Assembly (NCBI RefSeq): GCF_057098645.1
Contig: NZ_CM169472.1
Reading direction: 5' to 3' (one strand)
Length of the DNA: 64,000 bases
Positions 6,001 through 9,000 of this stretch are shown here, in pieces. Numbering within the stretch: the first letter of the stretch is position 1; the number at the start of each line of letters is the position of its first letter. The position numbers are program-made.

Positions 6001-9000
6001 CGTCCAGTTCGTAATAGTTACGGTAGCTGCCAGAGGTGCTAATCCCATGACCGTTGATATCCACCACAGCCTGAACCGCGTTTTCTTTATCGGTTGGTTT
6101 TTGAATCGCTACCCGCCACGGCAGGCCTTCACCGTTCATACCACGGCTGTTCAGCGCGCCGCCCACCGACACCAGATAGCGGGAAATCCCTTCCTGCTCC
6201 ATCAAGCGTGCCAGGTGATCCGCCGCATAACCTTCACCGACGGTGGAGAGATCGACATATAAATCCGGCAGGTCTTTTTGCAGATATTGCTGATGCGACT
6301 GATTAATGACCGTCAGGTGCTGTAAGCCGGTTTTGGCTTTCATCGCATCGATCTGTTCCTGGCTCGGAATTTGAACCGGCTGTTGTTCCGGGCCAAAGCC
6401 CCACAGATTCACCAGCGGCCCGACGGTTATATCCATCGCACCATCGGTCCTTGCGCCAATGCGCAGCGAGGTGGTGACGATATCGGCCATCGCTTCACTT
6501 ACCGGCCACGGCGACAAACTTTGCGAGTCGTTAAAGCGCATCAGCGCGGAATCTTTTTTATAGGTCGAAAGCAGCTGATCGTCGGCGTCCAGCTGGGTCT
6601 GAATCTTTTCTTTAAGTTCGGCGCTGCGTTTGGCGTCAATGCCCGGGATGCTGGCACGCCAGAAGGTACCCATAGTTTTGCCTTCAAGAACGGTAACTTC
6701 AGTAGCGTGGGTTTTGGCGGGTTGTGGTTTTTGATCGCAACCAACAAAGAAGAGCGCGGCAGCCAGCAGTGCCACGCGGGTAAAGCTTATTTCCATACGT
6801 GATTATCCTCATGCGAACGGTCGCAAGAGTACACCAAAAAACTGAGTTTGTACGCTGAAAACAATGAAAAAAGGGCCCGCAGGCCCTTTGTTCGATATCA
6901 ATCGAGATTAGAACTGGTAAACCAGACCCAGAGCTACGATGTTATCAGTGTTGATGCCAGCGTCACGAGTGAACTGGTTGTCGTCCAGCAGGTTGATTTT
7001 GTAGTCAACATAGGTGGACATGTTTTTGTTGAAGTAGTAGGTCGCGCCAACATCAACATATTTCAGGATATCTTCGTCGTCGTAGTTACGACCATTGATG
7101 ACACCCAGGTTTTTACCTTTAGACTGCAGGTAAGCCAGGGACGGACGCAGACCGAAGTCGAACTGGTACTGAGCAACAGCTTCGAAGTTCTGTGCTTTGT
7201 TCGCCCAACCCAGGGAACCTACGCGAGTTGCGTTGTAGGTCTGGGTGTACTGAGCAGCCAGGTAGATGTTGTTAGCGTCGTATTTCAGACCACCAGTGTA
7301 GGTTTCAGCACGGTCGCCAGTACCGATGTAGTTACGAACTACACCATTGCTGGTGTAGCTACCATTTTGATCATCAGTACGTTTGGAGCTGGAAACTGCA
7401 GCACCGATACCGAAGCCTTCGTAATCATAAGTGATAGATCCGCCGACACCGTCGCCATTCTGACGCAGAGCACCACGACCATTGTTGGTCATGCCTTCGC
7501 CGCTTACGCTACCATTTTTGCCCTGGTACTGAACAGCAAAGTTCAGACCGTCAACCAGACCGAAGAAGTCGGTGTTACGGTAGGTTGCGTAGCCATTACC
7601 ACGCTGCTGCATGAAGTTGTCAGAACCGTAAGTGTCACCACCAAATTCTGGCAGTACGTCGGTCCAGGAAGTTACGTCATAAACAACGCCGTAGTTACGA
7701 CCGTAGTCGAAAGAACCCACATCCTGGAATTTCAGACCAGCAAATGCCACACGGGTCCAGGAGTTGTTTTCGCTTTCCGGAGCGTTGCCCTGGATCTGAT
7801 ATTCCCACTGACCGTAACCGGTCAGCTGGTCAGTAACCTGAGTTTCACCTTTGAAGCCAAGACGCATGTAGGTCTGGTCGCCATCTACAGACTTGTCGTC
7901 AGAGAAATAGTGCAGGCCGTCTACTTTACCGTACAGATCTAATTTGTTGCCGTCTTTATTGTAAACTTCAGCAGCGTTTGCTGCGCCTGCTACCAGCAGA
8001 GCTGGGACCAGGAGGGACAGTACTTTAACTTTCATGTTATTAACCCTCTGTTATATGCCTTTATTTGCTTTTTTATGCCACTGCATACTGATTAACCCTC
8101 ATTAATCAGTCGGCAAGTCCATTCTCCCCAAAAATGCAGAATAATCCAACACGAATATGATACTAAAACTTTTAAGATGTTTCATTTATCGCTATAGATG
8201 TTTCAAAATGTAAATGCAAGGGAACTTTTTAAGATTATTGCGGAATGGCGAAATAAGCACCTAACATCAAGCAATAATAATTCAAGGTTAAAATCAATAA
8301 CTTATTCTTAAGTATTTGACAGCACTGAATGTCAAAACAAAACCTTCACTCGCAACTAGAATAACTCCCGCTATCATCATTAACTTTATTTATTACCGTC
8401 ATTCATTTCTGAATGTCTGTTTACCCCTATTTCAACCGGATGCCTCGCATCCGGTTTTTTTTACCCTTCTTTACACACTTTTCATTATTCTGTGCTACCA
8501 GAGAAAAACTATAACGCTTGTTAACTATTTCACAAATAATTAACATCAGCATAATTTCCAGCAATTTTCGTTTATTTGCAATTAATTTCGTTGGGCTTTT
8601 CGTAGGTTATTTGTACAGCAAAATGGCGCTTGTACATCAATTTCCCCCATACAGGATGATAAATATCACGGGAGAATAGAGAATCATCAATCAGGTAAGA
8701 GTCTGGAATTTCACACTGTACCCTTTATACTGCCCTATCACTTCGCGAAGTTTTAACAGGTCATAAACACGAATGCGTCAGAAAGAGACAACGGCCACGA
8801 CCCGCTTTTCACTCCTACCGGGGAGCATTACCCGCTTCTTTTTACTGTTGATCATTGTGTTACTGGTGACGATGGGTGTAATGGTACAAAGCGCCGTTAA
8901 CGCCTGGCTGAAAGATAAAAGTTACCAGATTGTCGACATTACCCACGCAATCCAAAAGCGCGTCGATACCTGGCGTTACGTGACCTGGCAGATCTACGAC

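Follow-up and report, generated by a model that had tools for sequence, protein, structure and literature searches.

The porin gene carried by this stretch of E. coli DNA is ompC, and its product is a normal outer-membrane porin OmpC of an O145:H28-type strain. We consider it very likely that it is the chromosomal ompC at its usual locus, in the form of a natural allele of the O145:H28/NM Shiga-toxin lineage in which the cassettes of loops L4, L5 and L7 have been swapped, most likely by intragenic recombination. The allele is already catalogued and typical of its lineage, and there is nothing new in it. Throughout the text, the window is the whole 64,000-nt stretch of contig NZ_CM169472.1 (assembly GCF_057098645.1) that was analyzed.

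The gene, its locus and its protein family

An earlier inspection made from the sequence alone (the sequence-only reading) had reported a 375-aa porin ORF; counting in the window gave the same result, an ATG-to-stop ORF of 1128 nt at positions 6908-8035 of the minus strand, with 375 codons plus the stop. The encoded protein has the exact sequence of WP_000865547.1, and RefSeq, in its annotation of the O145:NM strain FWSEC0002, calls ompC at coordinates 6908-8035 with WP_000865547.1 as the product. When compared with the NCBIfam models, the protein scored 758.4 bits with the porin OmpC model NF007841 (cut-off 484), the match covering residues 1-375, whereas the OmpF model reached 470.5 bits and the PhoE model 448.4 bits, both under their cut-offs (583 and 599, respectively). 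The Pfam family Porin_1 (PF00267) matched with 468.6 bits over profile positions 1-337 of 337, and solved OmpC chains aligned with the whole mature protein, the E values being 5e-221 for 9WCB, 5e-213 for 2XE1 and 3e-207 for 2J1N. The C-terminus reads LVYQF, thus ending in an aromatic residue as expected for the OmpC family.

The gene is flanked by apbE (5741-6796, minus strand) on one side and by the divergent rcsD (8773-11445, plus strand) on the other, and the order apbE, ompC, micF, rcsD is the same in the window and in K-12. Over its first 25 kb the window is ~100% identical to the chromosomes of O145:NM and O145:H28 Shiga-toxin E. coli (the matched stretch being 1 base longer), and identity of at least 99% over these 25 kb was found in just 26 of 5,426 complete genomes.

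Length, start codon and signal peptide

The K-12 MG1655 ompC gene is 1104 nt long and encodes 367 aa, the figure that the sequence-only reading had given. That reading had named two things that would make the extra length of the window protein spurious, namely an equal length upon alignment and a mis-called start codon; global alignment to the K-12 protein gave 375 against 367 aa, a net gain of eight residues, and the same ATG in both, so the length gain stands. Residues 1-46 are identical in both proteins, including the 21-residue signal peptide (7973-8035, minus strand), and the mature crystallized OmpC chains begin at residue 22 of the window protein, where a mature N-terminus AEVYNK is predicted from the sequence after the 21-aa Sec signal peptide. 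Because the first 46 residues are shared and the solved mature chains align from residue 22, the eight additional residues are real and not an artefact of the start.

Most differences from K-12 OmpC lie in the surface loops

The net difference of eight residues is the sum of three indels of -4, +8 and +4 residues. The alignment to K-12 and the mapping onto loops, which the sequence-only reading had proposed as a check, placed them in extracellular loops L4, L5 and L7; gaps fall at the same loop places when the window protein is aligned to the solved chains 2J1N, 2XE1 and 2XE2. The longer protein had been called consistent with loop insertions, a proposal that was right about the place, since all indels are in L4, L5 and L7, but has to be amended as to their nature: three cassettes have been exchanged, and one of them is shorter than its K-12 counterpart. 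Loops were assigned following Beck et al. 2016 (PMC5056734, S1 Fig and S2 Table), whose scheme was built on 2J1N, 2XE1 and 2XE2. Window residues 173-193, 219-241 and 309-320 are exactly the L4-c6, L5-b7 and L7-e strings of that scheme.

Loop L4 (7460-7519, minus strand) is of type c6 and has four residues fewer than K-12: GFTS, at precursor residues 181-184 of K-12, is missing, F182 being lost with it, and P177 is replaced by V. Loop L5 (7313-7381, minus strand), of type b7, has eight residues more, in a 12-residue stretch that aligns to TAAY of K-12, with the added codons at ~7334-7357. Loop L7 (7076-7111, minus strand), of type e, has four more, VING, just ahead of RNYDD, and here the added codons are at ~7094-7105. 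In addition, there are 18 substitutions, 15 of which lie in L1, L2, L4, L5 and L7; these include N47D and D49S in the L1 region (7876-7905, minus strand) and three in the L2 region (7760-7792, minus strand). F149Y, G216A and I218V (K-12 precursor numbering) are the sole substitutions outside the loops, located in or next to barrel strands. When gap columns are counted, 345 of 379 alignment columns (91%) are identical.

K-12 OmpC (WP_000865568.1; structure 2J1N) thus has its locus, start, signal peptide, barrel and loops L3, L6 and L8 in common with the window, while its loop types are a1 for L4, a1 for L5 and a for L7 instead of c6, b7 and e; its L4 is four residues longer, with P177 and F182 present, and its L5 and L7 are eight and four residues shorter, respectively. 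The L3 constriction loop, with its PEFGG motif, does not vary among the 14 alleles that we aligned. Judged by its homology to solved OmpC proteins, the window protein would fold as a 16-stranded beta-barrel with an inward L3. The mapping of the loops is based on the alignment to solved chains and on the structure-based tables of Beck et al.; an AlphaFold2 model made from a shallow alignment, in which the 14 E. coli OmpC alleles are nearly identical, was too poor to be used (mean pLDDT 28.1, pTM 0.19).

Comparison with other OmpC proteins

The O157:H7-type OmpC (WP_000865552.1, strain EC869), a protein of 367 aa with the loop combination c2/a6/e, shares with the window protein L1, the short L4 backbone, VING in L7 and the whole C-terminal half. 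It differs in L5, which is short (SPLYIGNGD) where that of the window is long, in L2 (SAENENN against APESENN), at residue 149 (F against Y) and in L4 (REAL against RGAL). The chain of PDB entry 9WCB, the closest solved structure to the window protein by the E value given above, presents the same differences from it as the O157:H7-type OmpC.

In OmpC of the uropathogenic (UPEC) strain A54H, L4 (c6) and L7 (e) are those of the window, and L5, of type b6, is one residue off b7 (I for T); its L1 (SDNKSED) and L2 (TSEDNKEN) are unlike those of the window, and the A54H form is one residue longer. The long b-type L5 is absent from the solved E. coli OmpC structures; among solved relatives, a long L5 is seen in Omp36 (5O9C) alone, and the sequence of that loop is unlike the one found here.

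Distribution of the allele

The window protein is identical to OmpC of O145:H28 strain RM12581 and of O145:NM strain FWSEC0002. More broadly, in the strains for which WP_000865547.1 is recorded (ATCC 35150, O145:H28 RM13514, RM13516 and RM12581, and FWSEC0002) the same protein is encoded at the same locus by a gene that is 99.9-100% identical; the RM12581 gene is one base apart from that of the window, a synonymous change at window position 7196. The survey of Beck et al. 2016 (PMC5056734) covered 2,707 E. coli OmpC proteins and told apart over 220 distinct sequences, in which 33 types of L4, 30 of L5 and 13 of L7 occur in many combinations. In its S1 Table, WP_000865547.1 is entry 126, L4-c6/L5-b7/L7-e, covering O145:H28 RM13514 and RM13516 and ATCC 35150, and Beck et al. 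name the same protein as the representative of L5 type b7.

Among 5,426 complete E. coli genomes, ~27 carry the window allele at a nucleotide identity of at least 99%; most of these are labelled O145 or O145:H28/NM, and several have no serotype in the record name. Many unrelated strains, ST540, O158:H23 and ETEC1738 among them, have alleles of the same length, 1128 nt, at 97-98% identity. We also compared gene lengths in 39 full-length ompC matches, sampled at regular intervals from the ranked list. Of these 39, 17 were 1104 nt long like the K-12 gene; the other lengths ranged from 1092 to 1131 nt, 1128 nt being seen in three matches, and one match measured 1109 nt, which is no multiple of three. 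Protein lengths in the 14 OmpC alleles that were fetched ran from 363 to 376 aa. Given this range, an OmpC that does not have 367 aa is normal in E. coli.

Mosaic structure of the gene

Nucleotide differences between the window gene and other alleles gather at gene positions ~244-276 (L2), 517-723 (L4 to L5) and 925-960 (L7), while the 5' and 3' flanks of ompC and most of the barrel are near-identical among the alleles sampled. Within the sample of 14 alleles, each variable segment was found in nucleotide-identical form in a different set of alleles: the L2 segment, outside the O145 lineage, in O7:H15 ST70 only; the L4 segment in 1916D18 only, with ETEC1717, WP8 and HH97 one base off; the L5 segment in ETEC1717 and WP8; and the L7 segment in HH97, A34, ST540, ETEC1717 and S6. 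The L2 peptide of the window is also printed for CFT073 and EC536 (Beck et al., S1 Fig, PMC5056734). Every allele that shares a segment departs from the window elsewhere in the gene, and none of the 14 matches it over the full gene except that of O145:H28 RM12581.

To judge by this pattern of segment sharing among 14 alleles, intragenic recombination between ompC alleles of E. coli is the most likely origin of the loop combination. In such a process pre-existing L4-c6, L5-b7 and L7-e cassettes would have been brought together in one ompC gene, yielding 375 aa instead of 367. Such a mosaic pattern is usually ascribed to diversifying selection exerted by phages, colicins, antibodies and the toxins of contact-dependent inhibition (CDI). 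It is not without precedent, as mosaic cassette shuffling of E. coli ompC (PMC5056734) and mosaic recombination of porin genes (bioRxiv 10.1101/2021.09.21.461324) have both been described.

A separate observation concerns window positions 7520-7759 (gene positions 277-516, beta5-beta8 including L3), which differ by 7-22 nt from every sampled allele outside the O145 lineage. The stretch is otherwise conserved at the protein level and holds F149Y, shared in the sample by strain 1916D18 only. This suggests that it may be a further recombined segment, coming from a donor type outside the 14-allele sample.

Alternative explanations

Could the longer loops have been born in place within the lineage by a new insertion or duplication, such as replication slippage would generate, rather than by import of cassettes? 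The indels, at 12 and 24 nt, are indeed short and in frame. Nevertheless, Tandem Repeats Finder detected no repeats in ompC, and on this result we gave up the idea that the loops had grown by in-place duplication; furthermore, the L4, L5 and L7 segments are nucleotide-identical in unrelated strains whose alleles differ elsewhere, and the same loop types are spread in many combinations over the 2,707 proteins surveyed. An origin in place is thus very unlikely in our estimation, and exchange of cassettes between alleles is the reading that we retain.

The remaining alternatives concern the identity and the length of the gene. Porin paralogues are ~60% identical to OmpC and the median E. coli genome has three ompC-like places, which leaves room for the idea that a paralogous or acquired porin (OmpN, NmpC, a phage Lc-type porin or the OmpC of a foreign species) is seated at the ompC locus. 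This was discarded on the NCBIfam scores, far above the cut-off for OmpC and below those for OmpF and PhoE, and on the RefSeq name of the gene; it is also contradicted by the canonical flanks apbE, micF and rcsD and by the ungapped identity of 93-99% to other E. coli OmpC alleles in the 14-allele alignment, so that we regard it as extremely improbable. A start codon called too far upstream, inflating the ORF relative to K-12, has hardly any probability left: three internal indels explain the whole length difference, the 414 nt upstream of the ATG have the K-12 sequence, and the artefact was ruled out by that identity together with the protein alignment. As for a sequencing or assembly error in one genome, its likelihood is practically nil, as the 1128-nt gene recurs, 99.9-100% identical, in 27 complete genomes that were assembled independently, and other alleles of 1128 nt, 97-98% identical, exist in many unrelated strains.

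Regulatory elements around ompC

The sequence-only reading had described the OmpR boxes, micF and the terminator as canonical, and all three were borne out. Predicted OmpR-binding boxes C1, C2 and C3 lie at 8154-8214 (minus strand), upstream of the ompC promoter, as exact matches to the sequences that we take to be those of the three boxes, and positions -1 to -414 relative to the ATG, boxes included, show zero differences from K-12. The conservation of the promoter was judged by this identity with K-12; a generic sigma-70 scan missed the ompC promoter, and the number of sites that it reported was no higher than chance. Downstream of the gene, the intrinsic terminator hairpin (6870-6889, minus strand) has the sequence AAAGGGCCTGCGGGCCCTTT followed by a T run, and the spacer between ompC and apbE is that of K-12.

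The gene for the antisense sRNA micF (8369-8462, plus strand), divergent from ompC, scored 116.8 bits in Rfam against a gathering score of 79. It presents a single change from K-12, at window position 8451, where C replaces U of the RNA in the loop of the terminator hairpin; the O157:H7 sequence has the same base as the window at this position. Beyond micF, the spacer towards rcsD carries ~ten substitutions and one single-base indel with respect to K-12, clustered at 8501-8651 and adjoining the K-12-identical 414 nt upstream of ompC. The indel, at 8649, also sets the window apart from O145:H28 RM12581.

Surface specificity of the window OmpC

Since the pore-forming parts are conserved, ordinary porin function is expected, and general diffusion through the window OmpC would be unchanged. 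The surface is a different matter. According to a review (PMC9603124), phage T4 requires loops 1, 4 and 5 of K-12 OmpC, and wild-type T4 can no longer infect when L4 carries either P177V or F182A; the window protein has V at 177 and lacks F182, as is the case in the O157-type L4. Moreover, the UPEC A54H OmpC allele leads to resistance to CDI-EC536 (Beck et al. 2016, PMC5056734). Because of V177, the loss of F182 and loops like those of A54H, a poor receptor is to be expected, and, by extrapolation from these other alleles, the window OmpC is probably a poor receptor for both wild-type T4 and CdiA-EC536.

The combination of APESENN in L2, Y149, c6, the long b7 and e is nearly confined to the O145:H28/NM lineage among complete genomes. 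That this combination acts as a lineage-specific determinant of susceptibility to phages or CDI, distinguishing O145:H28 from O157:H7, is a tentative idea that seems to us rather doubtful. The literature was searched for O145 OmpC in the role of phage receptor, and no work dealing with the window allele in particular came up. Beyond correct annotation the allele has little significance, the polymorphism of E. coli OmpC loops being well documented, and a practical use could be found only where phages or CDI-based agents are to be picked for use on Shiga-toxin E. coli of type O145. For that purpose, agents that depend on OmpC and are tuned to its K-12 or O157:H7 form may not carry over to the window allele, because the K-12 L4 residues needed by T4 are missing and L5 is long.

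Other features of the window

Elsewhere on the minus strand, two genes are interrupted in the window. The yfaQ gene is split between ORFs 16217-17101 and 17029-17865, which overlap, and the alpha-2-macroglobulin gene yfaS, within the region 16217-22485, is split at ~21021-21097; in O145:NM FWSEC0002 the same two genes are RefSeq pseudogenes, described as "frameshifted" and "internal stop". Finally, six Rfam matches to naRNA4 (REP/BIME-type) occur as intergenic pairs at 134-329, 12122-12312 and 35288-35446, and these repeats are ordinary for E. coli.
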